Source: a virus
Lineage: Duplodnaviria; Heunggongvirae; Uroviricota; Caudoviricetes
Length of the DNA: 64,000 bases
IMG/VR virus record: IMGVR_UViG_2851955134_000009
Strand: one strand, 5' to 3'
The notes beneath the pieces are model-generated. The model was given only the letters and a program-made list of their open reading frames with translations, did no database searches and was not told where the DNA came from. Positions 1,136 through 58,771 of the stretch are shown here, one piece after another; positions within the stretch are counted from its first letter, which is position 1; each line of letters opens with the position of its first letter. The position numbers were made by a program, and so were the translations under genes.

Positions 1136-2812
1136 CTAAGCAACATGTAGTTCATCGTTGGCGGAAGTGGCTGCTTTGCGCTCCTGCTCAATAGCTAGAG
1201 ACTCTCTATATTCTTTCGCCTCTGCAAACATTGTCCAGTGGGCGTTGATGTTCATGTCTTCAATAACTGATTTGATTTCTTTTAAATTTACGTTAAAAAA
1301 CTCTTTTCGTGAGTTAATTTTATTGACCTGCTTTTCGTTGAAAACTTTATGCAGATGGTTTTCTAATGATGGTGCATCATCACTATAAATCATCGCATGA
1401 ACATCGAACGAAAAAGGAACACTAGCATCTCCGAGTTCACGAACACGATCAAGTGGTTCAAGGCGGCGTGTCATTCCAATTTTATATACATCTTCGCCAA
1501 ATGAACCAATATTACTAATGATATAGACGTGGCCTGATCTGGTTTGTTGAGCCATAGAAATAGCTCGTTGATTTTTAGCTTCAGCTTCTTCATATTTTAA
1601 CTGTAGTTCAGCTATTTTTTGCTCTAAAGCTAAGCGTTGTTCTTCATTTGCAAGCATAAGTTCTTTCGTTGCTTTATTTATAGCTTGCTGAATAGCTTTT
1701 TCTTCTTTTTCAGCTTCTTTTATCGCTTTTTCATATTCTCTACGAGCTCTTTCCTCTTCACGAAGCTGTTCTTTAATCCTTCTTTGCTCTTCTTTTTCTT
1801 CGAGCATAATTTCATTAACTGCTACACCCCATTTTAGCTCGTTGAGTCTTGCCTGAAGATAGATGTCACTTATTTTTGCGGACCTAAAGGCAGAGCCATT
1901 GTAATTTACTAGTTGAAATGCATCTTTTATTTCTTGGGAAAGTTTTCCAAAATTGTTGTGTTTGACTTTTGATAAAATACTGTCAACTCTTCCATTGAAG
2001 GCATCCAAAACAAAGTTTATGGCAGTATTACGCCTGTTTTGCTCAACATAATCACACGAAGCAGCTTTATTAGTTTTTATTAATGATTTGGTTAACTCTC
2101 TGGCTTTTTGTAATTCCTTGCCTGCATCTGTAAATTCATAATTTTCTGCCAGCTCATCAAGTACACTACGGTTAGGGATGATCCATTCATCACCATAACC
2201 TTCAATTTTATTTTTCATTGATTTTGCAACTGCTTCATATTTTTCTGCAAACTCTTTAGCTTCATATGCTGAACCAGCAATCTCCTTTGCTCTTTCTTCT
2301 GCATCAGAAATAATTTTTACTGCATTGTCATTAGCATTTGAGATTAGCTCATTTGCTTTATTATTAGCATTATCAAGACGTTCTTTGGCTTTCAGGCGTG
2401 CATCGCGAGCGTCTTTGGTGATTGCTATAGCTTCGCTATTAGCGTTGCTTATTGTCATCTGAGCTTGATAATTTGCTTCGTTTACTGTTTTAGCCGCCTT
2501 AATTTGGGCTTCATCTATTTTTTGCTTGGCTATTGAGTCCGCATTTTTTATCTTATTCTCTGCATCCATTACTGCGCTGTGCAATTCTTCGTATTGCCAC
2601 AATGGTGCTGCTCGCCCTTCAAGCTCTGATAATTCTCGTACGGTCTGTGCTAGTTTTTCTTGATTTTCAATCAGTTGGTTAGAAAGGGCTATGTTGTTAG
2701 CTGTCAGGTTATCTATAGCCGCTTTGTGTTTTTTACTTTGTTTAAATAATATTACAGCTAGAACAGGGGCGAGAAATGCTAATAAGAGTATAACGATGGC
2801 AAATGAATTCAT
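1136..2812 (-). CDS. Membrane-anchored coiled-coil protein with C-terminal T5orf172/GIY-YIG-like domain (cargo)
   Basis: 558 aa; N-terminal TM helix, long K/E/A-rich coiled coil, C-terminal YIISNIGSFGEDVYKIGMTRR...HxxxF block; ATG with AAGGA RBS; visibly lower GC than flanks. Confidence 0.7.
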   Translation of the reverse strand: MNSFAIVILLLAFLAPVLAVILFKQSKKHKAAIDNLTANNIALSNQLIENQEKLAQTVRELSELEGRAAPLWQYEELHSAVMDAENKIKNADSIAKQKIDEAQIKAAKTVNEANYQAQMTISNANSEAIAITKDARDARLKAKERLDNANNKANELISNANDNAVKIISDAEERAKEIAGSAYEAKEFAEKYEAVAKSMKNKIEGYGDEWIIPNRSVLDELAENYEFTDAGKELQKARELTKSLIKTNKAASCDYVEQNRRNTAINFVLDAFNGRVDSILSKVKHNNFGKLSQEIKDAFQLVNYNGSAFRSAKISDIYLQARLNELKWGVAVNEIMLEEKEEQRRIKEQLREEERARREYEKAIKEAEKEEKAIQQAINKATKELMLANEEQRLALEQKIAELQLKYEEAEAKNQRAISMAQQTRSGHVYIISNIGSFGEDVYKIGMTRRLEPLDRVRELGDASVPFSFDVHAMIYSDDAPSLENHLHKVFNEKQVNKINSRKEFFNVNLKEIKSVIEDMNINAHWTMFAEAKEYRESLAIEQERKAATSANDELHVA

Positions 2813-2832
2813 TTTAAAATCCTTTTACTATA

Positions 2833-3429
2833 TTAATTCGAGACTATTGTACTTCTTATACAAGCAACCACTTCAATATCAGAAAATGCACATTCAAAGC
2901 TATTCTCTGCTGTTGTAATTTTAATCATTCCTTTAGGAAGCCTTGTGATTTTTCGAATGGAATAGGTTCCGTCGATATTGATTAACCAGTTTCCATCAAG
3001 TACTTCAGAAAATTTTTGATCACAAATGTATGTGACGAGTCCATCCTGAACAACAATTGGTGATGAAAGGTTTGCAGGAAGAAATGATGAATCGAAGACA
3101 TATGAACCGTCTTCAATCATTTTGCCTGCGGCAAGGCGAAACTTAACAAGCTCTTCTGTAGCTGCTGTCAGCGAGCTTTGCTTAAGGCCTTGTCCGGTAG
3201 TTAACCATTTGAGGGAGGTTCCTGTTTCAAGAGCACATTGGATTATCCAGTCAGCAGGAAATGTATCCCGCAAATACCTGTTCGCTAGTGTGCTTTTTGA
3301 TACTTCCAAGTGATCAGCTAAAGCCTGTCGTGTCGTAAAGCCATAGGCTTCGACTAATCGCTCAATCGCAGCCTTACCACCTTTATTGGGATTTATTTTG
3401 ATCTCACTTGGGTACTTTGATTTTGACAT
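2833..3429 (-). CDS. cI: CI-type lysogeny repressor (phage 186 CI-like)
   Basis: 198 aa; N-terminal HTH (AIERLVEAYGFTTRQALADHLEVSKSTLANR); divergent from apl/cII as in the 186 switch. Confidence 0.8.
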   Translation of the reverse strand: MSKSKYPSEIKINPNKGGKAAIERLVEAYGFTTRQALADHLEVSKSTLANRYLRDTFPADWIIQCALETGTSLKWLTTGQGLKQSSLTAATEELVKFRLAAGKMIEDGSYVFDSSFLPANLSSPIVVQDGLVTYICDQKFSEVLDGNWLINIDGTYSIRKITRLPKGMIKITTAENSFECAFSDIEVVACIRSTIVSN

Positions 3430-3524
3430 ATCTCTTTTGCGATCCTAGTATCAGTTTTGTACCCAATTGGGTACTTGTCACGATTACTACAGGCTCACCA
3501 CAAGCCAATAGGAGATGTTGCATC

Positions 3525-3746
3525 ATGACCCCTAACATTTCAATAACTCTGAATACGCCACACGTCACAATCGAGCGTTATAGCGAACTTACTGGTCTTT
3601 CAATCGACACAATCAACGATATGTTGGCGGATGGTCGCATTCCTCGGCATCGTCTTCGTAAAGACAAGAAAAGAGAAAAGGTAATGATCAACCTTGCTGC
3701 TCTTACCGTTGATGCACTTACTGATTGCAATGTTGTATTCAACTAG
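3525..3746 (+). CDS. apl: Apl/Cox-like excisionase and transcriptional regulator
   Basis: 73-aa ORF from internal ATG ([14 protein letters not shown]...), first gene of the rightward lytic operon opposite cI. Confidence 0.6.
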
Positions 3747-3778
3747 TTCCATTTTGGGATACATCAGAGGTGTCGACC

Positions 3779-4288
3779 ATGTTTGATTACCAAGTTTCCA
3801 AACATCCACATTTTGATGAAGCCTGTCGTGCATTCGCACTGCGCCACAATCTGGTGCAACTGGCAGAACGTGCGGGCATGAATGTGCAGATTCTGCGGAA
3901 CAAGCTGAACCCAGCTCAACCTCATTTATTAACCGCACCAGAAATCTGGCTGCTTACCGATCTGACTGAAGATTCAACGTTGGTAGATGGTTTTCTGGCA
4001 CAGATTCATTGTCTGCCATGTGTACCGATTAATGAGGTAGCAAAAGAGAAACTGCCGCATTACGTCATGAGCGCAACTGCAGAGATCGGGCGTGTTGCAG
4101 CAGGTGCGGTATCTGGTGATGTAAAAACTAGTGCCGGTCGTCGTGATGCTATCAGCAGCATTAACTCTGTAACACGACTGATGGCGCTGGCTGCTGTTTC
4201 ATTGCAAGCCCGTTTACAGGCTAATCCTGCGATGGCGAGTGCAGTTGATACCATGACTGGCCTTGGTGCTTCATTCGGTTTGCTGTGA
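3779..4288 (+). CDS. cII: CII-like lysogeny establishment regulator (186 CII-like)
   Basis: Internal ATG with AGAGG RBS; [20 protein letters not shown]...GASFGLL closely resembles 186 CII as recalled. Confidence 0.75.
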
Positions 4289-4295
4289 GGTGTTT

Positions 4296-4592
4296 ATGCT
4301 GACGAAAGAACCATCATTTGCATCGCTGCTGGTAAAACAAAGCCCGGCAATGCACTACGGTCACGGCTGGATCACGGGTGAGGATGGAAAACGCTGGCAT
4401 CCATGTCATTCACAAGATGAATTGCTGTCTGAATTGACCACGAGGAAACGGAGAAAGTCCAAATGTATGCGGCAGAAAGTGAAGTGGTTTATCAGTTTCG
4501 TTACAGAGGGGAGAGTTATTCAGTACCTGAAGATGATTTGCTCTGTTGCTATCCGTCATTGTCGGGCGATGGCAGTTACTTTTTCACGTTAA
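4296..4592 (+). CDS. Hypothetical protein (fil-position ORF); 3' end uncertain
   Basis: ATG with GAGG RBS; overlaps 4463..4687 in another frame, so one of the two may be mis-framed. Confidence 0.3.
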   Translation: MLTKEPSFASLLVKQSPAMHYGHGWITGEDGKRWHPCHSQDELLSELTTRKRRKSKCMRQKVKWFISFVTEGRVIQYLKMICSVAIRHCRAMAVTFSR

Positions 4593-4687
4593 AGGATGGG
4601 ACGTTTTTACGGGGAGAGCAGGTTAAAGAGACGATACGAAAAAATGTATCTCCTCTTGAGCGTTACCGTAAGAACAAAGAACGATAG
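4463..4687 (+). CDS. Hypothetical protein
   Basis: 74-aa ORF with GGAGAAAG RBS 7 nt upstream of ATG. Confidence 0.45.
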   Translation: MYAAESEVVYQFRYRGESYSVPEDDLLCCYPSLSGDGSYFFTLKDGTFLRGEQVKETIRKNVSPLERYRKNKER

Positions 4688-4709
4688 CTGCGTTTGGGGG
4701 ATATGAAGT

Positions 4710-5051
4710 ATGGCAATTAATGGCGCTGCAGCAACTGTTCCATTAAGCCCCGGTGAACGCCTGAATGGACTTAATCACATTGCGGAGTTAAGGGCGAAAG
4801 TTTTTGGCCTGAATATTGAGTCAGAGCTTGAGCGGTTTATTAAAGATATGCGTGATCCACGGGATATCAATAATGAACAAAATAAACGGGCACTGGCTGC
4901 CATATTCTTTATGGCAAAAATTCCAGCTGAACGTCATAGCATCAGCATTAATGAGCTGACCACTGACGAAAAGCGGGAGCTGATTAAAGCAATGAATCAT
5001 TTTCGTGCAGTGGTGAGCTTATTTCCCAGACGGCTAACCATGCCGAATTAA
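4710..5051 (+). CDS. Hypothetical protein
   Basis: 113-aa ORF, G-rich RBS upstream of ATG, within early operon. Confidence 0.5.
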   Translation: MAINGAAATVPLSPGERLNGLNHIAELRAKVFGLNIESELERFIKDMRDPRDINNEQNKRALAAIFFMAKIPAERHSISINELTTDEKRELIKAMNHFRAVVSLFPRRLTMPN

Positions 5052-20154: not shown

Positions 20155-20650
20155 ACGCTGCCTTGTCGGGGCTGTGCTGGCTATTGCTGCCACGCTGCCG
20201 GGTTTTCAGCAGCTTCACACCTCCGTGGAGGGACTGAAACTGATCGCCGATTACGAAGGCTGTCGTCTGCAGCCGTATCAGTGCAGCGCGGGTGTCTGGA
20301 CCGACGGCATTGGTAATACATCGGGCGTCATTCCCGGCAAAACAATCACGGAACGACAGGCAGCAGAAGGGCTGATCTCCAACGTGCTGCGTGTGGAGCG
20401 GGCGCTGGAAAGGTGTGTGAAGCAACAGCCACCGCAGAAGGTGTATGACGCTACGGTGTCGTTTGCCTTCAACGTGGGGACGGGCAATGCCTGTAGTTCC
20501 ACGCTGGTGAAATTGCTCAATCAGCGGCGCTGGGCGGATGCGTGCCGACAGTTGCCGCGCTGGGTGTATGTAAAAGGTGTGTTTAATCAGGGGCTAGATA
20601 ACCGCCGAGCGCGGGAGATGGCCTGGTGCCTTAAAGGAGCTGGACTATGA
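20135..20650 (+). CDS. Lysozyme/endolysin with N-terminal signal-anchor (SAR-type)
   Basis: 171 aa; hydrophobic N-terminus (LVGAVLAIAATLPG) followed by a lysozyme-like E...D...T region (YEGCRLQPYQCSAGVWTDGIGNT). Confidence 0.75.
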   Translation: MNPSIVKRCLVGAVLAIAATLPGFQQLHTSVEGLKLIADYEGCRLQPYQCSAGVWTDGIGNTSGVIPGKTITERQAAEGLISNVLRVERALERCVKQQPPQKVYDATVSFAFNVGTGNACSSTLVKLLNQRRWADACRQLPRWVYVKGVFNQGLDNRRAREMAWCLKGAGL

Positions 20651-21075
20651 TACGTGCGCTGGCGGTAGTGGCGGCGCTGGCACTCGTTGCGCTGGGCTGG
20701 CAGTCGTGGCGGCTTAACAGCGCCAGCCATACCATCGAAACGCAGCGCGCGGCGCTGAAAAGTAAAGCGCACGAACTAACGAAGAAAAATAGCCAGCTGA
20801 TCAGTCTGTCCATTCTGGCTGAAACCAACAACCGGGAGCAGGCGCGGCTCTACGCCGAAGCAGAACAGACCAGCGCACAGCTGAGACAACGACAACGCCG
20901 GATCGAGGAACTGAAACGTGAGAACGAGGATTTACGCCACTGGGCTGATACTCCTTTGCCTGCTGACATTATCCGGCTGCGGGAACGTCCGGCACTCACC
21001 GGAGGTGCAGCTTACCGTCAGTGGTTGTCCGCGAGTGACGCCGTGTCGGCTGGAGCAGGCAGCACCGCGCACTAA
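20647..21075 (+). CDS. lysB: i-spanin (Rz-like, LysB)
   Basis: 142 aa, N-terminal TM then charged coiled coil; contains embedded lysC in +1 frame. Confidence 0.75.
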   Translation: MIRALAVVAALALVALGWQSWRLNSASHTIETQRAALKSKAHELTKKNSQLISLSILAETNNREQARLYAEAEQTSAQLRQRQRRIEELKRENEDLRHWADTPLPADIIRLRERPALTGGAAYRQWLSASDAVSAGAGSTAH

Positions 21076-21154
21076 CGGTGATCTGAATGCGTTGCTGGAT
21101 GAAACGGAGGCCGCCTGGGCGGTCTGTGCAGACAAAGTGGACATGATTATTTGA
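20918..21154 (+). CDS. lysC: o-spanin lipoprotein (Rz1-like, LysC), 3' end replaced by Mu-like insertion
   Basis: Lipobox LTLSGC; 78 aa; stop codon TGA is the first 3 nt of the inserted element; reconstructed empty site gives a 96-codon ORF. Confidence 0.7.
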   Translation: MRTRIYATGLILLCLLTLSGCGNVRHSPEVQLTVSGCPRVTPCRLEQAAPRTNGDLNALLDETEAAWAVCADKVDMII

Positions 21155-21200
21155 TGCGCCGCGCGATAAATGCGCTCTATCTTGTGCGATAAATGGCATC
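21152..21200. repeat. Right-end terminal repeat region (transposase binding sites)
   Basis: TGATGCGCCGCGCGATAAATGCG...GTGCGATAAATGG, two GATAAAT motifs 22 bp apart; resembles the Mu R-end as recalled. Confidence 0.7.
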
Positions 21201-21229
21201 CACGCGGCGTTTCATTATTTGAAAAAGAA

Positions 21230-21802
21230 TTACATTTCAGGTTCCGTTATGACAGTCCCAACAGGGTGATAGCGGTAGATCGTTGACAGTCCAATATCAT
21301 AGATAATTGCCAGCCGCTTTCTGTCATACCCTTTCTGGAGCAATCTTGCGATCTGCTCATGCTGCTCCTTCGTCAGTTTCGGGCGACGTCCTCCAACTCT
21401 CCCTTGTGCTCGCGCAGCAGCCAGTCCTGCCAGCGTGCGCTCAACTATCAGTTCACGCTCCATTTCTGCCAGTGCACCCATCATATGAAAAAAGAACCTT
21501 CCCATCGGAGTGCTGGTATCGATTGAATCCGTCAGACTGCGAAAATTGACACCTTTTGCGCGTAGCTCTTCTGTGAGAGCAATGAGGTGTTTCATTCTTC
21601 TACCCAACCGATCCAGCTTCCAGACCACCAATGTATCCCCTCTTTTAAGGCACTTTAAAGCGCGTTTCAGGCCTGGTCGTTCCGACTTGGTTCCGCTCAT
21701 TTTGTCCTCAAAAATCTGTTCACATCCTGCGCACATTAATGCATTGCGTTGCAAATCTGTGTTTTGGTCATTTGTTGACACACGTATGTAGCCAATCAGC
21801 AT
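21230..21802 (-). CDS. gin: Serine DNA invertase (Gin/Hin/Cin family)
   Basis: 190 aa from ATG at 21802 (MLIGYIRVSTNDQ...); resolvase catalytic N-terminus and C-terminal HTH; adjacent to invertible tail-fibre segment. Confidence 0.9.
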   Translation of the reverse strand: MLIGYIRVSTNDQNTDLQRNALMCAGCEQIFEDKMSGTKSERPGLKRALKCLKRGDTLVVWKLDRLGRRMKHLIALTEELRAKGVNFRSLTDSIDTSTPMGRFFFHMMGALAEMERELIVERTLAGLAAARAQGRVGGRRPKLTKEQHEQIARLLQKGYDRKRLAIIYDIGLSTIYRYHPVGTVITEPEM

Positions 21803-21915
21803 TAAAAATACTCCCTTTTGAGTGGTTAAAGTACTGAGATAATGTGAGGAGGATTTGAGAGATAAACGTTGGTTTGGGGGAAGGCTCTGCATTGCCTGTT
21901 GGTGTACCGGTTCCA

Positions 21916-21948
21916 TGGCCCACCGCCACACCGCCAGCAGGCTGGTTA
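21916..21948. repeat. Inverted repeat, left crossover site of invertible segment
   Basis: 33-bp TGGCCCACCGCCACACCGCCAGCAGGCTGGTTA, perfect inverted copy at 23394..23426. Confidence 0.8.
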
Positions 21949-22335
21949 CAGTGCAACGGAGCTACGTTCACCAAAGAACAATATCCTGTTCTGGCCAGAG
22001 TCTACCCGACCCTCCGTCTTCCCGATTTGCGCGGTGAGTTTATCCGTGGATGGGACGGTGGTCGCAAGGTTGATACCGGGCGTGCGCTACTTTCATTTCA
22101 GGAAGGGACTATCGTATCCGGTTTTGATGATAATGATACCGGAGATATCAGTTCGCTCGGCTCTACACAATACGGATTTGGTGACGCTTTAACCTCTAAT
22201 CAACTGGGGGTCATAAATGGCAAAAAGTGGATATTTGATGCATCCTCTAAAGGTGCACAAAGATATGACTGGTGGGCTTATGTATCAGCTCGCCCCCGCA
22301 ATATCGCATTTAACTATATCGTGAGGGCGGCGTGA
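21949..22335 (+). other. Silent alternative tail-fibre C-terminal cassette (Sv'-like)
   Basis: Shares the GEGSALPVGVPVPWPTATPPAGWL junction and the C-terminal NYIVRA with the expressed fibre; no own ATG (track start is TTG inside the repeat). Confidence 0.7.
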
Positions 22336-22341
22336 TACCGT

Positions 22342-22956
22342 TCAGCCGGCAAGCGCCAGTGGCGCTTCCGGCCAGCTGATTTCAGGTGCCTTGCTGATAT
22401 CCAGTGCGTTCAGCTCGTCGATATAATCCAGCACGGCGTTCAGTTTTGCCGTTTCTTCTGGTTTCAGACTGCGACCTGCCCGCAGTTTGAGGTTGATGAG
22501 GTCGATGGACTTCATCGCCTGATCCACCCGTTCCTGGCGTTGCAGTCTGGCAACCTCCAGCTCTGCGGCTCGCTGCCGTTCAGTATCGGTTACCCACGCC
22601 TCACCGTTCCAGGTATCCCATGGCGTGGCCGGCTGTTTTGTGGTGGTGTCCGCCGGGTAATCACCCGGCTGGGTAATCTGAACGGGAGTACCGTTCTCCG
22701 TGCTGTATACCGTCTCGCCGCGGTGATCAGGCACATGTTCCCACCCGTTCAGCGTGGCAGTCCGGCAAACCACGTAACCCGAAATTGCCTCCGGCGGTGC
22801 ATCGGCGCACGAATGTGCCGGAGTACCCACCCCAAGGGCGAGATACTCCACAGAGGATGAGGTGTATTCCCGGGTTTCCTCGTCATAGTGATATACAGTG
22901 ATATCGCCCGCTACAGTGGCGATACCGTTTTCATCCAGAACTGCAGTGTTACTCAT
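22342..22956 (-). CDS. Tail fibre assembly protein (Mu U-like chaperone)
   Basis: 204 aa, immediately downstream of the fibre gene, inside the invertible segment. Confidence 0.8.
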   Translation of the reverse strand: MSNTAVLDENGIATVAGDITVYHYDEETREYTSSSVEYLALGVGTPAHSCADAPPEAISGYVVCRTATLNGWEHVPDHRGETVYSTENGTPVQITQPGDYPADTTTKQPATPWDTWNGEAWVTDTERQRAAELEVARLQRQERVDQAMKSIDLINLKLRAGRSLKPEETAKLNAVLDYIDELNALDISKAPEISWPEAPLALAG

Positions 22957-24725
22957 TAAACTGCCCTCACAATGTAATTAAGTGCAATGCTACGGGGTCT
23001 GACAGTGATACCCTTCGCATACCCGCTTCTGATAGAGGTCAGAATAGTAGCCTGCATACCATTGTCTGACATTGCCACGACAGGATCGCTGAATGTTGTC
23101 CCGTCCGGCATTTTAAAGCTGCCCTCACGAAGGTCTGTAATGGAATCTTCATTGTTGAATCCCATGCCGACTATCCCCGAGGTTCCCGTAGTGTCCTGGT
23201 TATAATAATCCAGCATTGCTGTTCTTAACAGCGTTGCCCCTTGTGCGGACAGCAACTTACGTCCTGTATCAACTTTGCGCCCGTCGTCCCATCCACGGAT
23301 AAACTCACCGCGCAAATCGGGAAGACGGAGGGTCGGGTAGGCTCTGGCCAGAACAGGATATTGTTCTTTTGTAAAGGCGCGCCCGTCGCACTTTAACCAG
23401 CCTGCTGGCGGTGTGGCGGTGGGCCACGGAACAGGCACACCAACGGGTAGCGCCGAGCCTTCTCCTAAACCAAGGTAATTGAGGACATCTTTTATACTGC
23501 CCTTAGCGATAATAGCGCGACCAATAGCTGTAAGGGTTGCCAGCGCTGCGCGGTCTGCTCCGGTAAAATAAGGCAACCGATCTGCTGCAGTGGCAAGTCC
23601 TGCCAGAGCAGTGAGCGTGGCATCTGCCGGTTGTTTTCCGTTTGCCAGATCGTATGCAGCCTTGACCGCTTTCGGTGTGGCGGCCAGTATTTCAGACGTG
23701 CTGTTGATGGCACTGCTCAGTTGTACGGTGCCTTTTGCCGTCAGCGAGGCCGCAGGCACTCCCGTTATCTGACTCCACGGGTGAGTGTGGCTGGCAGGCG
23801 CCTTGCCGGCTGCCAGGTCGTATGCAGCCTTGACCGCTTTCGGTGTGGCGGCCAGCGTTTCAGACGTGCTGTTGATGGCACTGCTCAGTTGTACGATCCC
23901 TTTACGGGTCGTTGTTGCATCCTGGGCTGTGTATTTTCCCCGGGCCAGATCATACGCGATTTTCACAGCCTTCGGCGTGGCAGCCTCAGTTTCTGATTGA
24001 CTGTCCGTGGCGCTGCTCAGTTGTACGGTGCCTTTTGCCGTCAGTGAAGCCGCAGGCACTCCCGTTATCTGACTCCACGGGTGAGTGTGGCTGGCAGGCG
24101 CCTTGCCGGCTGCCAGGTCGTATGCAGCCTTGACCGCTTTCGGTGTGGCGGCCAGCGTTTCAGACGTGCTGTTGATGGCACTGCTCAGTTGTACGATCCC
24201 TTTACGGGTCGTTGTTGCATCCTGGGCTGTGTATTTTCCCCGGGCCAGATCATACGCGATTTTCACAGCCTTCGGCGTGGCAGCCTCAGTTTCTGATTGA
24301 CTGTCCGTGGCGCTGCTCAGTTGTACGGTGCCTTTTGCCGTCAGTGAAGCCGCAGGCACTCCCGTTATCTGACTCCACGGGTGAGTGTGGCTGGCAGGCG
24401 CCTTGCCGGCTGCCAGGTCGTATGCAGCCTTGACCGCTTTTGGTGTGGCGGCCAGCGTTTCAGAGGTGCTGTTGGTGGCACTGCTCAGTTGGGTGAACCC
24501 CTTAGCTGTCAGTGTCGCGTCCGGGTGGTTACGGGAACGTACGTGTTCAGCCAGTGACTGTGCGGCTTCCTCCGTTTTCTTCTTCAGCCATTTCGTCCTG
24601 TTTGCCAGTTGCCGGGGGGCTCGATTTGATATCCCGTCTGCACCACCCAGAACCGGATCTGATGTCTCCAGTTGATAGATATTTTCTTCCCACTTTTCTG
24701 TTTCATTCAGGTTTCCCATAATCAA
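22956..24725 (-). CDS. Tail fibre protein (Mu S-like) with repetitive shaft
   Basis: 589 aa; about 100-aa repeats (GTVQLSSA..S.SET.AATPKAVK.AYDLA); C-terminal 145 aa lies inside the invertible segment. Confidence 0.85.
   Translation of the reverse strand: MIMGNLNETEKWEENIYQLETSDPVLGGADGISNRAPRQLANRTKWLKKKTEEAAQSLAEHVRSRNHPDATLTAKGFTQLSSATNSTSETLAATPKAVKAAYDLAAGKAPASHTHPWSQITGVPAASLTAKGTVQLSSATDSQSETEAATPKAVKIAYDLARGKYTAQDATTTRKGIVQLSSAINSTSETLAATPKAVKAAYDLAAGKAPASHTHPWSQITGVPAASLTAKGTVQLSSATDSQSETEAATPKAVKIAYDLARGKYTAQDATTTRKGIVQLSSAINSTSETLAATPKAVKAAYDLAAGKAPASHTHPWSQITGVPAASLTAKGTVQLSSAINSTSEILAATPKAVKAAYDLANGKQPADATLTALAGLATAADRLPYFTGADRAALATLTAIGRAIIAKGSIKDVLNYLGLGEGSALPVGVPVPWPTATPPAGWLKCDGRAFTKEQYPVLARAYPTLRLPDLRGEFIRGWDDGRKVDTGRKLLSAQGATLLRTAMLDYYNQDTTGTSGIVGMGFNNEDSITDLREGSFKMPDGTTFSDPVVAMSDNGMQATILTSIRSGYAKGITVRPRSIALNYIVRAV
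23394..23426. repeat. Inverted repeat, right crossover site of invertible segment
   Basis: Reverse complement of 21916..21948, located inside the fibre gene at the constant/variable junction. Confidence 0.8.
23640..24480. repeat. 300-bp tandem repeats within the tail-fibre gene
   Basis: 23761..24060 and 24061..24360 are identical, with diverged partial copies on both sides. Confidence 0.85.
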
Positions 24726-25312
24726 CTGCTCCCGTGGTTATAACTGCCATCATGGATGGCGGTATTGTTATAGCGAATGGCCACAGACTGATACTCCAGG
24801 CTGGCCAGATGGCAGCGGGCCGGTGCAAATGCAGCCAGCGTCTGACGCAGCATCGCGGCCTGATCGTTAGTAATGGGCTGTTTCAGAATAACGCGATAAA
24901 CTGCCCAGGCGGCTGCATCTCCATGAACAAACAGTCCGTTATAGCTGCGATTGCCGTCGTAACTGAGACGACCTGTGCCTTCAATCAGATCCACTTCACC
25001 AAAGCCAAAACGGCGGATAACTTCCCGGATTGACCACGGCGTCCCTTTATACCGGTGCAGTTCGATGGCTGCTTTTATAAGCATGCGGCGAACATCGTCC
25101 GATTCCGCCAGCTCCCAGCCATCGCCAGACAGTGAGAACTGCTCGCCCAGCCATGGCAGCGCGGAACTGTCGACGATATCGACGAGAAAGACCATCAGTA
25201 CGCTCAGGTCGATGTTATCCAGCCGTCCTGCCAGTCTTCCCAGCGTCCTGAGACTGATATCACCCTCAAGCGGTGGCGGGAGTTGTAATGGCTCAGTCAT
25301 CAGACACTCCAC
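24722..25312 (-). CDS. Baseplate/tail protein (P2 gpI-like, Mu gp48 position)
   Basis: 196 aa, between J-like baseplate gene and tail fibre. Confidence 0.7.
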   Translation of the reverse strand: MECLMTEPLQLPPPLEGDISLRTLGRLAGRLDNIDLSVLMVFLVDIVDSSALPWLGEQFSLSGDGWELAESDDVRRMLIKAAIELHRYKGTPWSIREVIRRFGFGEVDLIEGTGRLSYDGNRSYNGLFVHGDAAAWAVYRVILKQPITNDQAAMLRQTLAAFAPARCHLASLEYQSVAIRYNNTAIHDGSYNHGSS

Positions 25313-26396
25313 TCATGTTAAGAGTGATTGCCGTACAGTTTGCCCATTCGTTTTCTGCCACCACCCGCAGTGCCGGTGTCACCAGTTCAACCTGGTACAC
25401 CCCGGAAACGGACAATGCACTGATAATCTGGCTGGGGACAATATCACGCCCCAGCGTGGCGGCACGTGATGCCACCCAGTTCTGTATGGCGCTGTTAGCG
25501 GCATCTTTTACAGACCTGGCATCCTGATCACGATAGATCGTAATCCTGGCTTCAATGGTGTAATCCACCTTCACTGGTGTTTTAGCCCGCACTGTATCAG
25601 TGAGTGGCCTGACTTTCTCATCAGAGCAGAAACTCTCTACCAGCGTGAGAACACCGCCGTCCGGCAGACCGGTACTGAGCAGCGGATACAGATCTACGGT
25701 CCCGGGAACCGGGGAAAGCACAGCAACATCGACAATGTTGGGATGGGCCTGCATGGCATGAAAGCGGTATGCGCCACGGCTTCCGGCATTGGTGAATGAC
25801 TCCGGGGCCAGCCTGATACGCTCCCGGAGCCTGTCATCGTCTTCCTGTTCTGAACCGCCGGAACTGGCCGTCAGATTGCTCACCAGCAGGTCGACGTTAT
25901 CAATCTCATCGAGTAACTGACTGACCTGCGCAGGTTGCCAGCCGTTACCAGCGGTACCGGGTTCGGTACAGGTGGACGTGACATTGACCAGCAGCAATCC
26001 GGCCTTCAGTACCACATCTGTATCGGTGGCAAAAATAACGCTGTCGGAAGCGCTGACGCGGGTGCCTGCCGGGATCAGCACATCAATGGCCAGTGCCTCA
26101 TCTACGGAGAACTGGAGCGTGGTGGTGGCAGGCTGCGCGGCAAGACGGTATACACCGACCAGTTCACCGAGGTAATCAATCATCGGCTCACGGGCAAAGG
26201 CGACCAGATTCTGCTTTGCTGCCTCCTGTACCGCAACCCTGACCAGCATTTCGCGATAGGCCCACAGATCAATCAGCAGACGTTCTGCCTGTGCCGGGTA
26301 CAGCGTTTTGCCGGTATCCGCTTCATACTTCGCAATCATTTCTGCCGTGATTTTGTCGGCATCGCGTTCAATAAAATCGGGTTCTGTCAGCGCCAT
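25293..26396 (-). CDS. Baseplate protein J-like
   Basis: 367 aa in W-J-I order. Confidence 0.75.
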   Translation of the reverse strand: MALTEPDFIERDADKITAEMIAKYEADTGKTLYPAQAERLLIDLWAYREMLVRVAVQEAAKQNLVAFAREPMIDYLGELVGVYRLAAQPATTTLQFSVDEALAIDVLIPAGTRVSASDSVIFATDTDVVLKAGLLLVNVTSTCTEPGTAGNGWQPAQVSQLLDEIDNVDLLVSNLTASSGGSEQEDDDRLRERIRLAPESFTNAGSRGAYRFHAMQAHPNIVDVAVLSPVPGTVDLYPLLSTGLPDGGVLTLVESFCSDEKVRPLTDTVRAKTPVKVDYTIEARITIYRDQDARSVKDAANSAIQNWVASRAATLGRDIVPSQIISALSVSGVYQVELVTPALRVVAENEWANCTAITLNMSGVSDD

Positions 26397-47707: not shown

Positions 47708-48472
47708 ATGAAAATGCAGACATTACCCATCGTTCCATGGATTGGTGGCAAACGCCGCCTTGCAAAACACATTCTGCCGCTGTTTCCGGCGCATGAATGT
47801 TATGTGGAGCCGTTTTGTGGGGCAGCAGCGCTCTATTTTCTTAAGACACCCGGCAAGATCGAAGTCATCAATGATATCAACGGTGAACTGGTGAATCTGT
47901 ACCGGGTGGTAAAGCATCACCTGGAAGAATTTGTCCGCCAGTTCAAATGGGCGCTGGTCAGCCGTCAGATCTACAAATGGCTGCAGATCACCCCGGAAGA
48001 AACACTGACGGATATCCAGCGTGCGGCACGGTTCTACTACCTTCAGAAGCAGGCGTTTGGCGGCAAGGTGGCAGAGCACAGCTTCGGTACCTCCACCACA
48101 TCCCCGCCACGCTTCAACCTGCTGCGTATTGAAGAAGAACTGTCAGCGGCACACCTGCGGCTTTCCAGAACAGTCATAGAACACATGGACTGGCAACAGT
48201 GCATTGAGCGTTATGATCGTCCGCACACGCTGTTCTACTGCGACCCACCGTACCTGGGTACGGAAGGCTATGGTGTGGATTTTCCTGAAGGGAACTACTC
48301 GCGGCTGGCAGAGCTGGCCCGGTGCATCAGAGGAAAAATGATAATTTCGGTGAACGACATCCCGCAGATGCGCGAGGTGTTCACTGGACTGAACATACAG
48401 ACAGTGAATATCAACTACAGTCTGGCGGGTAAATCCACGCCGCGCCGTGAACTGCTAATCTGCAACTTCTGA
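47708..48472 (+). CDS. DNA N6-adenine methyltransferase (Dam-like, orphan)
   Basis: 254 aa; PWIGGKRRL N-terminal motif and DPPY catalytic motif (LFYCDPPYLGT); no restriction partner. Confidence 0.85.
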   Translation: MKMQTLPIVPWIGGKRRLAKHILPLFPAHECYVEPFCGAAALYFLKTPGKIEVINDINGELVNLYRVVKHHLEEFVRQFKWALVSRQIYKWLQITPEETLTDIQRAARFYYLQKQAFGGKVAEHSFGTSTTSPPRFNLLRIEEELSAAHLRLSRTVIEHMDWQQCIERYDRPHTLFYCDPPYLGTEGYGVDFPEGNYSRLAELARCIRGKMIISVNDIPQMREVFTGLNIQTVNINYSLAGKSTPRRELLICNF

Positions 48473-49590: not shown

Positions 49591-50508
49591 ATGGGACGCA
49601 CCAAATCACCGGTTAGCACTGAACTGAACGTCGAGGTACCGCTGTCGGATGATCTCAATGTCAGTCTGAACGCCATGACACAGCATCGCATGGAAATCAT
49701 GCAACAGTTCGGCGATGGTCTGCCCTATGAGCGCGATCGTGTTGTCCATGAGGCACGCTTTTATATGGCACAGAGCGCTGAGGCCATGCTGGAGGCAGGT
49801 AAACGGCTAATAATCCTTAAGGAAAATGAACCACACGGGGAGTTTATAAAGATTCTTGAAAGTGAGTTGGGGCTGGCATACCGGACATCTGTGAGAATGA
49901 TGCAGGCATCGACAAAATACTTATCCCCGGCGCTGAAACCAAATGTGCCAACGTTGGCACATTTGGGAAAAGCCAAACTTTTCGAATTAATGACAGAAGA
50001 CGACGAAGAGCTTGCCGAACTGGCCGACGGCGGTACGGTTGCCGGCCTGACGCTTGACGATGTTGATCGCATGTCAGTACGTGAACTTCGTCAGGCCCTG
50101 CGCGAAGCGCGCGAAACCAATGCAGCACAACAGCGTGTTCTAGCCGACAAAAATGAAAAAATCGACTCACTCTCCACCAGGCTGGAGAAAAAATCCCGTA
50201 TTCAACCGCCTGAGCCTGATGAAGAGGTGAAGAAGCTGCGGGCGGAAGTGACCGCATTAGCGGTTGAGGCGGAATCTGCCATCGCCGTCCGGCTCTCCGG
50301 TGCCTTTGAAACCCTGTGTGAATACTGCAGTAAAAACATGATTGATACCCCCAGAGATTTCATGGCCGGTCTGGTCTGCCAGATTGAACGCAGTGTTCAT
50401 GCATTGCGTGAGACGTTCGACCTTGATGCCGCACCATCGGGTAACGATGTCCCCGCATGGCTGACCGAACCGGAGCCTGAAATCAACCGACCGGAGGGCA
50501 TGCGTTAA
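49591..50508 (+). CDS. Hypothetical early protein
   Basis: 305 aa, acidic, coiled-coil segment. Confidence 0.55.
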   Translation: MGRTKSPVSTELNVEVPLSDDLNVSLNAMTQHRMEIMQQFGDGLPYERDRVVHEARFYMAQSAEAMLEAGKRLIILKENEPHGEFIKILESELGLAYRTSVRMMQASTKYLSPALKPNVPTLAHLGKAKLFELMTEDDEELAELADGGTVAGLTLDDVDRMSVRELRQALREARETNAAQQRVLADKNEKIDSLSTRLEKKSRIQPPEPDEEVKKLRAEVTALAVEAESAIAVRLSGAFETLCEYCSKNMIDTPRDFMAGLVCQIERSVHALRETFDLDAAPSGNDVPAWLTEPEPEINRPEGMR

Positions 50509-50825
50509 TGAACACGAATAATACACAAAATATCCTGATGGACAGCCCGGAAGCACTGGGGCACGCACTGTGTAATCTGCTGCCGGAGATGGTGCAGGGT
50601 TTCCGCGTGGTGACACCTTCCGGTGAAATCTGCGTACCCGCACAGGAGGCGCATCCGTTTGTACTGACGATGGAAGTGATGCTGATGCAGCAGATAAGAC
50701 GTCTGCAGCATCAGTCAGCATTGCGCCCGGCAGTTGCGCCGCAACCGGTAAATAACGTGGTGAAAACCTGCGATGGCGAAACCCTGCGCGACCGTGCCAG
50801 AAAAATTGCCGCCAGAATCGGATAA
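50508..50825 (+). CDS. Hypothetical protein
   Basis: 105 aa; TAATG overlap. Confidence 0.45.
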   Translation: MNTNNTQNILMDSPEALGHALCNLLPEMVQGFRVVTPSGEICVPAQEAHPFVLTMEVMLMQQIRRLQHQSALRPAVAPQPVNNVVKTCDGETLRDRARKIAARIG

Positions 50826-50840
50826 CAGGGAAGACAAGCT

Positions 50841-52610
50841 ATGACCCCGGCACTGACTGAAAAACTTGTTGAAACAGCCCGCGCGGCACGTAATGCGGGG
50901 CATGGTAAACGCGGTGCAATATACGACGCTGCCTGTGCTGAACTTGGCATGTCCCGCGCCACTCTGCTGCGCAGGCTGAAGGAGGTCTCTGTGACTGATA
51001 AACGCAAAAAACGCGCCGATGCCGGACGCAGCACCCTGACCCGCGACGAAGCCGCGCTGATATCTGCCACACTACGTGAGGCCACCCGCAAGAACGGTAA
51101 GCGTCTCTATTCCATCGCGGATGCAGTGGAAACCCTGCGGGCTAACGGCTTTATCTCCGCAGGCAGAACAGATGAAACCACCGGTGAGTTTTTCCCGTTG
51201 TCCGAAGATGCCATCAGTCGTGCCCTGCGTAACTATGGCCTGCACCCGGAACAACTGGATGCCCCTGCACCGCATACCGAAGTGGCCAGTCTGCACCCCA
51301 ATCATGTCTGGCAGATTGACGCCTCACTCTGCACGCTTTACTACCTGAGCAATGGACATAAAGGGCTGCAGGTGATGGACAGCGCGAAATTCTACAAAAA
51401 CAAGCCCGCTAACCTTGCCCGTATCGCCAGTGACCGCGTGTGGAGTTACGAGATTACCGACCATGCCAGCGGCTGGATTTACGTTGAGTATGTGACGGGT
51501 GCGGAATCCGGTGAGAACCTGTGTTCTGTGCTTATCAACGCCATGCAGGAGCGTGGCGGCGCAGACGTGCTGCACGGCGTGCCAAAAATACTCTATCTCG
51601 ACCCCGGCTCGGCAAACACCGCGGGTATGACGAAAAACATGTGCCGCTCACTGGGCATCGACCTGATAGCGCACAAGCCGCATAACGCCCGCGCCACCGG
51701 ACAGGTGGAAAAGGCGCGTGACATTATCGAACGCAAGCTGGAGCCGGGTCTGAAGTTCCGGCCGGTTCACAGTCTGGAAGAACTCAACGCGCTGGCCGCG
51801 AAATGGCGCAGCCACTTTAACGCCACGGCTGTTCACAGCCGCCACGGTAAAACCCGCACGGATATCTGGCTGAAGATTACTGCTGAGCAGCTGAAAAAAG
51901 CGCCTTCCGTTGAGGTATGTCGTGAACTGGCTGTGGCGGCACCAGAACTCCGCAAAGTCACGCCAAAACTTCGTGTCTCGTTCCGGGGCACTGAATTTGA
52001 CGTATCAACGGTACCGGGCGTACTGGTCGGTGAAAAACTGATGATTACCCGTAACCCGTGGCGCAGCGATGTGGCACAGGTGGTTCTGACCGGTGAGGAC
52101 GGCCACGAGACGTTCTTCCTGGTCGAAGAGGTCAGAAAGAACGAGTTTGGCTTTGCTGAAGGCGCGGCGGTATTTGGCGAAAGTTACAAAGCCCTGCCGG
52201 AAACCCCGGCGCAGATGGCGGCAAAAGAAACCGAAGCGCTGGTCACCGGTACAGACAACGCCGCAGATGCAGCTGCCGCACGCAAGGCGAAGGCGCTGCC
52301 GTTCGGCGGGCGGCTTGACCCGTATAAACATATTGATGACGCCACACTTCCGGCCTGTATACCGAAGCGTGGTCAGGCCTCTGACGTACGCGGACCGCGC
52401 ACTGAACAGCGTCCCATGACTCATGTGGAGGCCGCGAAAGCCCTGCGCGGGAAGTTTAGCGCAAACGGCCTGACCTGGACGCCGGAACATTACCGCCAGT
52501 TAACAGCACAGTACCCGGACGGCGTACCGGAAGCCGCACTGGATGAAGTCATGGCCACGCTGACCACGCCGGCCCGCAGCAGCGTTATCAGCATTGTTAA
52601 CGGCAACTGA
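50841..52610 (+). CDS. DDE transposase (retroviral-integrase-type core), transposable-phage A-like
   Basis: 589 aa; N-terminal HTH; core with HVWQIDAS, YLDPGSANT and downstream E; followed by AAA+ partner. Confidence 0.8.
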   Translation: MTPALTEKLVETARAARNAGHGKRGAIYDAACAELGMSRATLLRRLKEVSVTDKRKKRADAGRSTLTRDEAALISATLREATRKNGKRLYSIADAVETLRANGFISAGRTDETTGEFFPLSEDAISRALRNYGLHPEQLDAPAPHTEVASLHPNHVWQIDASLCTLYYLSNGHKGLQVMDSAKFYKNKPANLARIASDRVWSYEITDHASGWIYVEYVTGAESGENLCSVLINAMQERGGADVLHGVPKILYLDPGSANTAGMTKNMCRSLGIDLIAHKPHNARATGQVEKARDIIERKLEPGLKFRPVHSLEELNALAAKWRSHFNATAVHSRHGKTRTDIWLKITAEQLKKAPSVEVCRELAVAAPELRKVTPKLRVSFRGTEFDVSTVPGVLVGEKLMITRNPWRSDVAQVVLTGEDGHETFFLVEEVRKNEFGFAEGAAVFGESYKALPETPAQMAAKETEALVTGTDNAADAAAARKAKALPFGGRLDPYKHIDDATLPACIPKRGQASDVRGPRTEQRPMTHVEAAKALRGKFSANGLTWTPEHYRQLTAQYPDGVPEAALDEVMATLTTPARSSVISIVNGN

Positions 52611-52620
52611 GGAGGGAAAC

Positions 52621-53787
52621 ATGCTGGTACTGAAGCAGCAACTGAAAGAGGCCCGTATTCCACAGGCGGTGGCGGCGAGAGCTGTCGATGTTTCTGAGGC
52701 CACGCTGGCCCAGATTGTGAATCATAACGCGTGGCCCCGCACCAGCCCCGGAGAAGTGCGCCGGCGTCTTGCGTCCTGGCTGGAAAGTCAGGGGATTGAT
52801 ACAACGAAGAGTTTTGATGCTGTACAGGGCGCGGCCACGCCCCGTACAGCGGGTACCACAGATAAAACGAGCCTCAGTGAGGAAGAGAATATGTTACTCA
52901 AAAAACAGGTGTTATTTCCAGCAACCAAAAAAGCGTTTGGTCTTTTCCGTGACCCGTTCGCCGATGAAGCCATGCAGGGTTCTGATGATGTGTTCACCAC
53001 CCCGGACATTCGCTACGTGCGTGAGGCGCTGTACCAGACAGCCCGTCATGGTGGGTTTATGGCCGTCATCGGTGAGTCCGGTGCGGGTAAATCCACGCTG
53101 CGCCGCGACCTGACTGAACGTATTAACCGCGAGAATGCGCCGGTAATTGTTATCGAGCCATACATCATCGCTATGGAAGACAACGATGTGAAAGGGAAAA
53201 CCCTGAAGGCAGCAGCTATTGCCGAAGCCATTATCAGTACCATCGCACCACTGGAAAGCATCAGACGCAGTCAGGACGCCCGCTTTCGCCAGTTGCATCG
53301 CGTCCTGAAAGACAGCAGCCAGGCGGGGTTCAGCCACGTTCTGGTGATTGAGGAGGCCCACAGTCTGCCCATTCCGACACTGAAACACCTCAAACGCTTT
53401 TTTGAGCTGGAGTCCGGTTTCAAAAAACTGCTGTCCATCGTGCTGATTGGCCAGCCGGAACTGGCGACAAAACTGTCTGAACGCAATATGGAAGTCCGTG
53501 AAGTCGTTCAGCGCTGTGAGGTGGTCGAACTTCTGCCTCTGGACAATAACCTTGAAGAATTTCTGACGTTCAAACTGCAACGGGCCGGTAAACAACTGAC
53601 GGACATTATGGACGCCAGCGCAGTGGATGCCATACGTGCCCGCCTGAGCAATCCGGGAAGTCATCGTAAAAATATGGTCAGCCTGCTGTATCCGCTGGCC
53701 GTCAGTAACCTGGTAATAGCCGCCATGAATCTGGCCGCTGAAATCGGGGTTCCACAGGTCAACGCTGACGTTGTCAAAGGAGTTTAA
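52621..53787 (+). CDS. AAA+ ATPase transposition helper (Mu B-like)
   Basis: 388 aa; N-terminal HTH; Walker A GESGAGKST; Walker B VLVIEEAH. Confidence 0.8.
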   Translation: MLVLKQQLKEARIPQAVAARAVDVSEATLAQIVNHNAWPRTSPGEVRRRLASWLESQGIDTTKSFDAVQGAATPRTAGTTDKTSLSEEENMLLKKQVLFPATKKAFGLFRDPFADEAMQGSDDVFTTPDIRYVREALYQTARHGGFMAVIGESGAGKSTLRRDLTERINRENAPVIVIEPYIIAMEDNDVKGKTLKAAAIAEAIISTIAPLESIRRSQDARFRQLHRVLKDSSQAGFSHVLVIEEAHSLPIPTLKHLKRFFELESGFKKLLSIVLIGQPELATKLSERNMEVREVVQRCEVVELLPLDNNLEEFLTFKLQRAGKQLTDIMDASAVDAIRARLSNPGSHRKNMVSLLYPLAVSNLVIAAMNLAAEIGVPQVNADVVKGV

Positions 53788-53789
53788 TA

Positions 53790-54059
53790 ATGAAATCCAC
53801 CACAGGTATCAACCAGCAAATCAGCAAAGTGCAGTCAGCCATTATGGCGCTTAAGGCGACGAACACGGATGTACAAAGCATCACCATCAGGGGTAACAAA
53901 CCTGTCATCCGCGTTTCCCGGAGTGCGCATTGCATGCGCATGCTTGAGCAGGGAAAGGCCTGTTATCTGTATACCGGACATGACCACAGGGGATATTTCC
54001 GTCAGGGCGTTTTCGAACTGCACGGCTGTCGCGTCGTGTGGCCGGAATCTTTGTGGTAA
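53790..54059 (+). CDS. Hypothetical protein
   Basis: 89-aa ORF directly after the ATPase gene. Confidence 0.45.
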   Translation: MKSTTGINQQISKVQSAIMALKATNTDVQSITIRGNKPVIRVSRSAHCMRMLEQGKACYLYTGHDHRGYFRQGVFELHGCRVVWPESLW

Positions 54060-54086
54060 TCAGCACAACCGGAGAAATCATAAAAT

Positions 54087-54617
54087 ATGGCAAAAAGTAC
54101 AAAAGGGGCAAAACGTATCAAGGCCGCAGCGGCACTCTGGGTACCAGGGACACGCGAAGAGGTCATTGAGGGAATCAGACTACTCGGTGACGCACAACGT
54201 GAACTGGTCAGGGCTGAAACAGAAATGAATGACGCCATTGGCGATATCACCGCACGTTATGCCCCGCTCACCGAGAGCCTGAAAAAACGCATGGCCGAAC
54301 TGCAGTCCGGTATCCAGACATGGTGTGAGGCGCACCGTGATGAACTGACCGGCAACGGGAAGGTGAAGTTCGCTAACCTTACCACCGGCGAGGTGCAGTG
54401 GCGAAACCGTCCGCCATCAGTCAGTATCCGTGGGGCGGATAATGTTATTGAATTACTGAGACGTCTGGGGCTTGAGCGCTTTATTCGTGTAAAAGAGGAA
54501 ATAAATAAAGACGCTATCCTGAATGAAAAAGAGGCCGTGAAAAATATTCCCGGTATTTCCATTAAAAGCGACATTGAGGATTTTTCAATAATTCCTTTTG
54601 AGCAGGATGTGCAGTAA
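54087..54617 (+). CDS. gam: Gam-like host-nuclease inhibitor
   Basis: 176 aa; strong similarity to Mu Gam as recalled (RIKAAAA...TEMNDAI...WCEANRDELT...SIRG...FIR.K.EINK.AIL...SDIEDFSIIPFEQ). Confidence 0.85.
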   Translation: MAKSTKGAKRIKAAAALWVPGTREEVIEGIRLLGDAQRELVRAETEMNDAIGDITARYAPLTESLKKRMAELQSGIQTWCEAHRDELTGNGKVKFANLTTGEVQWRNRPPSVSIRGADNVIELLRRLGLERFIRVKEEINKDAILNEKEAVKNIPGISIKSDIEDFSIIPFEQDVQ

Positions 54618-54714
54618 ACACACCACGTTAATTATTTAATAAAAACATTTTCTTTTTTATTCCGGCGTCAGCGCCGCGGGCTTCTGCACGCCGGAAACAG
54701 AGGAGAATTAAATC

Positions 54715-54909
54715 ATGATATTTAAATGTATTCAGTGCGAGAGGGATATAACAGCCCTGCGTTTTCACAGCGCCATCGCCGTGATGTCCGGTAAATACCA
54801 CATCCCTGCGGTACGCGTCACCCTGGTCTGCCCGTACTGCAGCCAGCATTTTTCGGCGGACGTGCCCGTCATGGAATTCTCCCGCCCTGACAGGGAGGAC
54901 GCGCAATGA
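54715..54909 (+). CDS. Small zinc-ribbon protein
   Basis: 64 aa with CxxC (CIQC) and CxxC (CPYC); GAGGAG RBS. Confidence 0.5.
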   Translation: MIFKCIQCERDITALRFHSAIAVMSGKYHIPAVRVTLVCPYCSQHFSADVPVMEFSRPDREDAQ

Positions 54910-55178
54910 TTACCCCACAGGAAGCACGACAGCGCACCCGAACCCTTGTTGAACACTATGTCAACGAGTGTGAATGCCGCAACCTCACCGATGTGAAGCA
55001 CGTCCTGACGGCACTAATCAGTATGGCCGCTCAGGCCATTGTGGCAACCAACGGAAAGGCGGCTGCCCTGCAGGTACTGGTGAACACACTCACCCACACG
55101 GCAGAGCATGAGGTGCCGTACCGGATGGAAACCACTGCAGAAGGCGGCCTGCACATCACCGTCAGCCGGAAGCACTGA
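54906..55178 (+). CDS. Hypothetical protein
   Basis: 90 aa, ATGA overlap. Confidence 0.45.
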   Translation: MITPQEARQRTRTLVEHYVNECECRNLTDVKHVLTALISMAAQAIVATNGKAAALQVLVNTLTHTAEHEVPYRMETTAEGGLHITVSRKH

Positions 55179-55187
55179 GGGCGCGGC

Positions 55188-55484: not shown

Positions 55485-55498
55485 CCGGGAGGCATTCA

Positions 55499-58746: not shown

Positions 58747-58771
58747 ATTATTGCGTGTCAGGAGCGAAACA

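Follow-up and report, generated by a model that had tools for sequence, protein, structure and literature searches.

A tail-fibre switch lies near one end of a 37.6-kb Mu-like transposable prophage (21152-58747) in a 64,000-nucleotide stretch of tailed-phage DNA (Caudoviricetes, IMG/VR record IMGVR_UViG_2851955134_000009). We refer to this whole stretch as the window and give all coordinates in it. The switch is the last feature of the prophage, and consists of an invertase gene, a tail-fibre gene, an alternative fibre C-terminus and a chaperone gene. The invertase (21230-21802, minus strand, 190 amino acids) is a Din-family serine DNA invertase. It matches Pfam Resolvase with 172 bits and also HTH_7, aligns over residues 1-182 with the Gin structures 4M6F and 3UJ3 (E=1.7e-93), and shares 84% amino acid identity with the pin/min invertase of pMCR_SCKP-LL83, a p15B-min-like plasmid. 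The whole tail-fibre gene (22956-24719, minus strand) contains six Phage_fiber_2 repeats and a C-terminal Collar domain, of which the latter falls within the invertible segment. Its constant part (23472-24719, minus strand; Phage_fiber_2 repeats, 370 bits; an identical locus is annotated in RefSeq) continues into the expressed variable C-terminus of 171 amino acids, here called cassette Sv1 (22956-23471, minus strand; Collar domain). The fibre stop codon is overlapped (TAATG) by the start of the sole tail-fibre assembly chaperone gene, tfa (22342-22956, minus strand, 204 amino acids). On the plus strand, a silent alternative fibre C-terminus, cassette B (21871-22335; Collar domain PF07484, 58 bits), comprises 154 codons from GLGEGS through the stop codon. 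It is promoterless and stands tail-to-tail with tfa, the two stop codons being separated by 6 bp (22336-22341), a gap that the initial annotation of this DNA also gives.

The longest perfect repeat of the region is a 33-bp inverted repeat, TGGCCCACCGCCACACCGCCAGCAGGCTGGTTA, at 21916-21948 and 23394-23426. The initial annotation reported its sequence and position correctly, and took it to bracket an invertible segment of about 1.45 kb with a silent cassette starting at 21949. The repeat is the best-conserved core of a 229-nt inverted repeat with 86% identity (21866-22094 and 23248-23476), which is the homologous collar-coding 5' part of both cassettes and not a recombination site. Two 26-bp sites with the pattern of Din-type crossover sites are found 46 bp further out on each side. 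The left site, GAGAGATAAACG-TT-GGTTTGGGGGAA (21857-21882, plus strand), is directly upstream of the invertase gene, and the right site, TCCTCAATTACC-TT-GGTTTAGGAGAA (23460-23485, minus strand), is inside the tail-fibre open reading frame (ORF), at ...NYL|GLGEG.... Both sites contain the central dinucleotide TT and a GGTTTnGGnGAA half-site, are imperfectly palindromic and lie in inverted orientation; they resemble the hix/gix/cix consensus. A site-pattern search of positions 21000-25000 of the window returned these two crossover sites only. The invertible block is 21871-23471, or 1601 bp, and the silent cassette accordingly starts at 21871.

Inversion of this block is observed among natural genomes. 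We made a synthetic version of the flipped arrangement by placing the crossover at the central TT of the 26-bp sites, and found it as a single piece at 100.0% identity (rounded; one mismatch) in strains PK8275 and PK8261, and also in many others. In strains MS1737 and MS1494, the prophage occupies one and the same chromosomal position. The flanks (2671 and 3129 nt) have 0 mismatches, and between them the 1601 bp equivalent to 21871-23471 of the window are the exact reverse complement in one strain relative to the other. In sister strains and in PK8275, the right half-sites, GGTTTGGGGGA versus GGTTTAGGAGA, travel with the cassettes and the left half remains with the flank; the exchange therefore takes place within TTGGTTT, 46 bp outside the 33-mer. 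On these genome comparisons, the segment inverts by exchange at the 26-bp sites. That the 33-bp repeat is itself the recombination site and the boundary of the segment, as its length might suggest, is practically ruled out by the same orientation variants: the 46 bp that separate each 26-bp site from the 33-bp core are polymorphic and accompany the cassettes, and a flipped sequence with its crossover at the outer sites agrees with real genomes to within 0-1 mismatch. Moreover, the 33-mer is devoid of the Din half-site pattern, which the outer sites display on the opposite strand as AAACC-AA-GGTxx, like the hix, cix and gix sites. The corrected crossover sites are those needed for locking or engineering the switch.

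To count the two arrangements, we searched 5426 complete E. coli genomes with equal-length queries for both; 305 genomes had the orientation of the window and 294 the flipped one, a ratio of about 1:1 that is what a freely reversible switch predicts. The proposal in the initial annotation of an invertible tail-fibre segment beside a Gin-type invertase is thus upheld both by invertase homology and by the finding of both orientations, the check that this annotation had itself named. In the flipped strains MS1494 and PK8275, tfa is directed against the fibre gene, so that the expected lack of a co-oriented chaperone after inversion is seen directly. MS1494 has a full-length annotated fibre of 570 amino acids, with cassette B in frame with the constant part. 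Comparable loci are known to invert in culture, in a prophage of E. coli E2348/69 (PMC4272514) and in the Enterobacter phage FRphi, where deletion of gin locks the state (PMC13418256).

The two fibre tips are related. Sv1 and B are 54% identical overall and nearly identical over the first 70 residues and the last 14 (RPRxIAxNYIVRA), and Sv1 resembles the T4 gp37 tip (PDB structure: 2XGF), with a match in the collar and a weak one in the C-terminal NIAxNYIVR motif. Both tips are short T4-gp37-like collar-plus-tip modules with a common N-terminal collar and a common C-terminal end. The middle part, where they differ, presumably binds the receptor, and inversion should therefore switch host range. 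In the window, the fixed flank does not provide cassette B with an in-frame start codon, and a TGA at 21856-21858 closes the frame. The flank between invertase and left site in an Enterobacter P2-like prophage and in a Cedecea phage (loci L011 and L013, both at 5001-5040) gives an in-frame ATG (ATGCCA...) 12 codons before GLGEG; there, the invertase-adjacent cassette could be translated as a short stand-alone protein, plus the tfa behind it.

The product of the window tfa is a predicted tail fibre assembly chaperone of the lambda/HK97 type. It scores 92.6 bits against Caudo_TAP (PF02413; cut-off 22.1 bits) and is 61% identical to HK97 Tfa (Gp29). No other gene of this kind is present in the segment, as the initial annotation had noted in contrasting it with the Mu G and P1 C segments. 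We listed all segment ORFs of at least 40 amino acids, and compared the five non-annotated ones (51-107 amino acids) with Pfam at E<=1; no match was obtained, and a second chaperone is therefore not concealed by the choice of start codon, an outcome that had been named as one that would overturn the single-chaperone claim.

Homologs of this Tfa accompany B-type tips elsewhere. Such tips are directly followed by their own overlapping tfa in the Enterobacter P2-like L011, in the Cedecea phage L013, which has a classical two-chaperone segment, and in E. coli Mu-like prophages (L015-L017). These Tfas are 46-56% identical overall to the window Tfa, and 56-62% identical in their N-terminal 125 residues. 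The N-domain binds the fibre tip in TfaMu and Pam3 gp25, and such chaperones can stay on the virion (PMC9608196). Given that B-type tips elsewhere carry an adjacent homologous Tfa, and that the collar and the C-terminal motif are common to both window tips, collar-type tips most likely use this Tfa family and the lone Tfa most likely serves both tips of the window. The three E. coli prophages (L015-L017, 4001-6174) belong to another Mu-like phage type, with a 252-amino acid fibre and a B-type tip; they have the classical two-chaperone layout, in which Tfa200 is followed by a reversed Tfa146 and Gp53-like_C cassette, no invertase gene is called adjacent, and host genes come straight after.

Modules of the same kind occur on several backbones, and each has one tfa. 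Three cassettes are found in the Mu-like prophage beside aroA of E. coli ST131 (strain EC958, L002) and in the P1-like plasmid pB2C_96 (L005), four in the P1-like plasmid pCUVET20-PYO4.3 (L006), five in a P2-like prophage (L019 and L020), seven in a P1-like contig (L018), and nine in the p15B-min-like pMCR_SCKP-LL83 (L021), the inversion region of which is reported as 99% identical to p15B min (PMC5786510). The cassettes are collar-type, with a common GLGEGSALPVG... start and RPRNIAFNYIVRA end, and the single Tfa of the P1-like and P2-like multi-cassette modules is 55-58% identical to that of the window. In every variant examined, tfa follows one cassette and adjoins another tail-to-tail. There is no crossover site between tfa and the tail-to-tail cassette, which therefore is never co-transcribed with tfa. 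The cassette in this position is of type B in the window and of two further types in the modules from P1-like and P2-like elements; it is intact in every case, and in L020 it is the expressed one.

About 20 P1-like plasmids have the exact module of the window (invertase, B, tfa and Sv1), with an identity of about 97%, and there are also copies of about 97% identity with 3-4 crossover sites. Comparison of ST131 strains (R11, L024, and R14, L025) with EC958 indicates how the forms are connected: the R11 locus differs from that of EC958 by the precise loss of the 439-bp cassette A, with 0 mismatches in 5000 nt. The lost cassette lay between two directly repeated crossover sites, and the outcome is the architecture of the window. 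Site-to-site deletion therefore turns the three-cassette form into the two-cassette form, and cassettes can be lost in this way as well as inverted. The window has the minimal two-cassette form of a mobile module hosted by Mu-like, P2-like and P1-like elements, and, to judge from all these variants, the single tfa is the rule of a p15B-Min-type module family and not a local decay.

We estimate at roughly 75% the probability that the locus is an active Din-family (Gin/Pin/Min-type) inversion switch ending a Mu-like E. coli prophage, in which one generalist Tfa serves the tips. In this mechanism, the invertase recombines the two 26-bp TT sites and flips the 1601-bp block. In the orientation of the window, the constant fibre part is fused to Sv1, and one late transcript also takes in tfa behind it; in the other orientation, the constant part is fused in frame to B, with tfa reversed. 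The one Tfa would act as a generalist on every collar-type tip, B included, folding it and perhaps also capping it. If the lone Tfa serves B, it must be made in trans when tfa is reversed, and the reversed gene may be expressed via low-level transcription from the invertase side. The initial annotation had offered two explanations for the missing chaperone, a decaying cassette or a chaperone acting in trans; the former is unsupported, and the latter is the likeliest, if unproven. We extend it only tentatively, at somewhat less than even odds, to the family as a whole, in which one embedded chaperone gene would serve every tip in any orientation by means of orientation-independent expression of tfa. 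If this is true, tfa would be uncoupled from the late fibre operon, for example by a weak promoter in the fixed flank on the invertase side. If tfa is silent when reversed, one tip would be chaperone-independent or deliberately uncapped, and inversion would toggle the Tfa cap together with the tip.

Several observations on transcription weigh against a shared Tfa supplied in trans. A scan for consensus sigma-70 promoters on both strands of 21100-24900 found none. The sole inward-facing candidate is an extended -10-like motif, TGAGATAAT, at 21835-21843 on the plus strand; the window has 31 copies of this motif where chance alone predicts 32.8, and the copy in question might just as well be part of the promoter of the invertase, on the opposite strand. 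A dedicated inward promoter would have little space, as only 78 bp separate the invertase, the last gene of the element, from the end of the element. When the block is flipped, moreover, the late transcript is antisense through tfa. A limit on the selection analysis of cassette B, given below with its numbers, points the same way.

It is possible, though we think it unlikely, that B, and the tail-to-tail cassette generally, folds without Tfa, so that the chaperone, which stays on the fibre tip in Mu and Ur-lambda, belongs only to the cassette that it follows, and inversion toggles between a Tfa-capped and a bare tip. The absence of co-transcription of B with tfa and of a crossover site between them would agree with this, as would the empty promoter scan. 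A given Tfa subtype is invariably found behind one particular cassette type, and the tips are very short (154-171 amino acids) in comparison with the T4 gp37 needle. However, B-type tips outside the module carry their own overlapping tfa (L011, L013, L015-L017), and the N-domains of those Tfas are homologous to that of the window Tfa. Furthermore, B has the collar and the C-terminal motif in common with Sv1, and the T4 gp37 tip, a structural relative, requires chaperones (PMC9608196).

Much less probable is that the flipped state is a dead end, with B a relic that has lost its own, U'-like chaperone gene. B-tipped particles would then be fibre-defective, and the cassette would persist only through being carried along by inversion. 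Classical two-chaperone relatives do exist (the Cedecea L013 and the E. coli L015), and only 6 bp separate the stops of B and tfa. There is also a small hint in the cassette ends: cassettes that precede tfa and cassettes that are tail-to-tail with tfa both end in ...GTGAGGGC, which is Shine-Dalgarno-like, and stand-alone ones end in ...GTAAGGGC. The shared ending fits a former tfa of its own, now lost, downstream of the tail-to-tail cassette. Against this, an intact B is found not only here but also, in near-identical form, in hundreds of genomes on three phage backbones, and each of three module variants keeps an intact tail-to-tail cassette. About half of the lysogens have a reversed tfa, and a dead end would mean the loss of half of all bursts. 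Purifying selection is also acting on the B type: dN/dS is 0.13-0.14 against diverged copies at dS of about 0.8-0.9, a comparison that uses copies in other positions, as the tail-to-tail copies are too alike for an estimate. With full-length fibre ORFs in the flipped genomes, this evidence says that cassette B is not decaying, contrary to one of the options put forward in the initial annotation. The low dN/dS of the B type also supports the reading in which both tips share the single Tfa.

Other candidate signals around the cassettes were examined and set aside. A hairpin with a T-run at 22433-22452 on the plus strand could be a terminator that comes after B once the block is inverted, but terminator-like sites are about as frequent as chance predicts (4 found, 4.6 expected), and none was reported at the equivalent place, just past the tail-to-tail cassette on the matching strand, in L019 or L021. 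A promoter-like motif (CTGGCA-16-TAAAAT or TAGAAA-18-TAAAAT) recurs on the coding strand, at one constant place in the collar part, of many p15B-type cassettes, at 2343-4802 and 6181-6152 in L021 and at 6422-6395 in L019. As a promoter it was rejected: its count is not above chance, and it is absent from the cassettes of the window. Known RNA families were not found in 20500-25500.

Inversion switches of tail fibres set phage host range, and they are being put to use in the retargeting of phages, tailocins and P1/P2-based delivery particles. The module discussed here is present in about 600 of the 5426 E. coli genomes, with a single Tfa accompanying 2-9 tips. As one of these tips is never co-transcribed with tfa, the module poses a simple, testable question on Tfa specificity and expression.

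The Mu-like element that carries the switch is inserted into another prophage. Its genes, as identified by Pfam, include a DDE transposase, a MuB-like ATPase, Gam, GemA, Mor, a Mu-type portal, F and Gp27, together with a P2-like tail. We set its ends by comparison with an uninterrupted P2-like prophage; they read TGAT...ATCA and are flanked by a 5-bp target duplication, TTATT (21147-21151 and 58748-58752). The terminus next to the invertase (21152-21229) contains two GCGATAAATG repeats, at 21163-21172 and 21186-21195, which may be transposase-binding sites. In different strains, the element adjoins different, often truncated, host genes. In the window, it has been inserted in the lysC/R overlap of the P2-like prophage; the R gene is thereby deprived of its native 5' end, and the P2-like prophage is therefore probably inactivated. 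The late genes of the Mu-like element (head, tail, fibre and invertase; 21230-47000, minus strand) and its early genes (transposase, MuB-like protein, Gam, GemA and Mor; 49591-57638, plus strand) diverge from the middle. In Mu itself, early and late genes run in one direction. The transposase is encoded at 50841-52610 and the MuB-like protein at 52594-53787, both on the plus strand, and a D12-class adenine methyltransferase (47708-48472) is located between the early and late blocks.

The constant part of the fibre contains three 300-nt (100-amino acid) tandem repeats (23634-24533) that are 82-90% identical. Fibre length varies widely among otherwise near-identical relatives, from 443 amino acids in EC958 to 587 in the window and 928 in pB2C_96, and several RefSeq copies are annotated as frameshifted within the tandem-repeat part; the repeat number therefore appears to be unstable or difficult to assemble. 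In the IncI-gamma/K1 conjugative plasmid pNDM5_LS003 (L022, 5031-6046), an invertase identical to the ST131/P1-like one is located between pilN and PilV shufflon remnants, together with its left site and the beginning of a fibre cassette; the identity to 21200-21908 of the window is 99.3%. This may be a chimeric junction of a tail-fibre switch with a pilus shufflon, comparable to a reported PilV-tail-collar fusion (PMC9881135). The adjacent ORF in pNDM5_LS003 is annotated as 'prepilin, shufflon protein A'.

The nearest known system is the Min multiple-inversion region of p15B, reportedly described by Sandmeier, Iida and Arber in 1990-1992, which is the classical multi-cassette example. It is represented here by the 99%-identical copy in pMCR_SCKP-LL83 (PMC5786510) and by the P1-like plasmids L005, L006 and L018. 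As in the window, there is one lambda-type Tfa, with one cassette preceding it and another abutting it tail-to-tail; the invertases share 84% identity, the 26-bp sites follow one pattern, AAACG-TT-GGTTT, and the cassette ends are identical. The differences are that the window has two sites and two cassettes and p15B Min 6-9, that the window switch is in a Mu-like transposable prophage and not in a P1-like plasmid, that the Tfas are only 55-56% identical, and that another cassette type follows or abuts tfa.

The G segment of Mu with Gin and the C segment of P1 with Cin are similar to the window in having an adjoining Gin-like invertase, which is the last gene of the late region, one site within the fibre ORF, and two alternative fibre C-termini in opposite orientation with a predicted switch of host range. 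They differ in that the tips of the window are collar/gp37-like, and its homology arms are 229 nt long compared with 34 bp in Mu (PMC4406740). Mu and P1 also have two chaperone genes, U and U', one per orientation, and the window has one, so that the two complete sets, Sv-U and Sv'-U', that define the Mu G and P1 C arrangement are not present in the window. The e14 element of E. coli K-12 is a defective lambdoid element with two tfa genes (tfaP and tfaE), unlike the window, and p15B Min was reportedly described as related to its Pin. As in the window, the fibre C-termini of the P segment of e14 are flipped by a Din invertase, Pin (PMC4272514, PMC12529663).

By their descriptions, the three-repeat P2-like locus of E2348/69 (PMC4272514) and FRphi (PMC13418256) are likewise similar to the window in combining a Gin-type invertase with several alternative fibre C-termini, and all their fibre variants coexist in cultures. 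In contrast to the window, they have three or more cassettes and P2-like backbones; the chaperone gene is not discussed in either paper. The 50:25:25 ratio of isoforms in FRphi equals, by our own calculation, the equilibrium prediction for a layout with three cassettes and one large unit like that of ST131. In sum, the family to which the switch in the window belongs has been described since the 1980s-90s, and the switch is otherwise one of its ordinary members.

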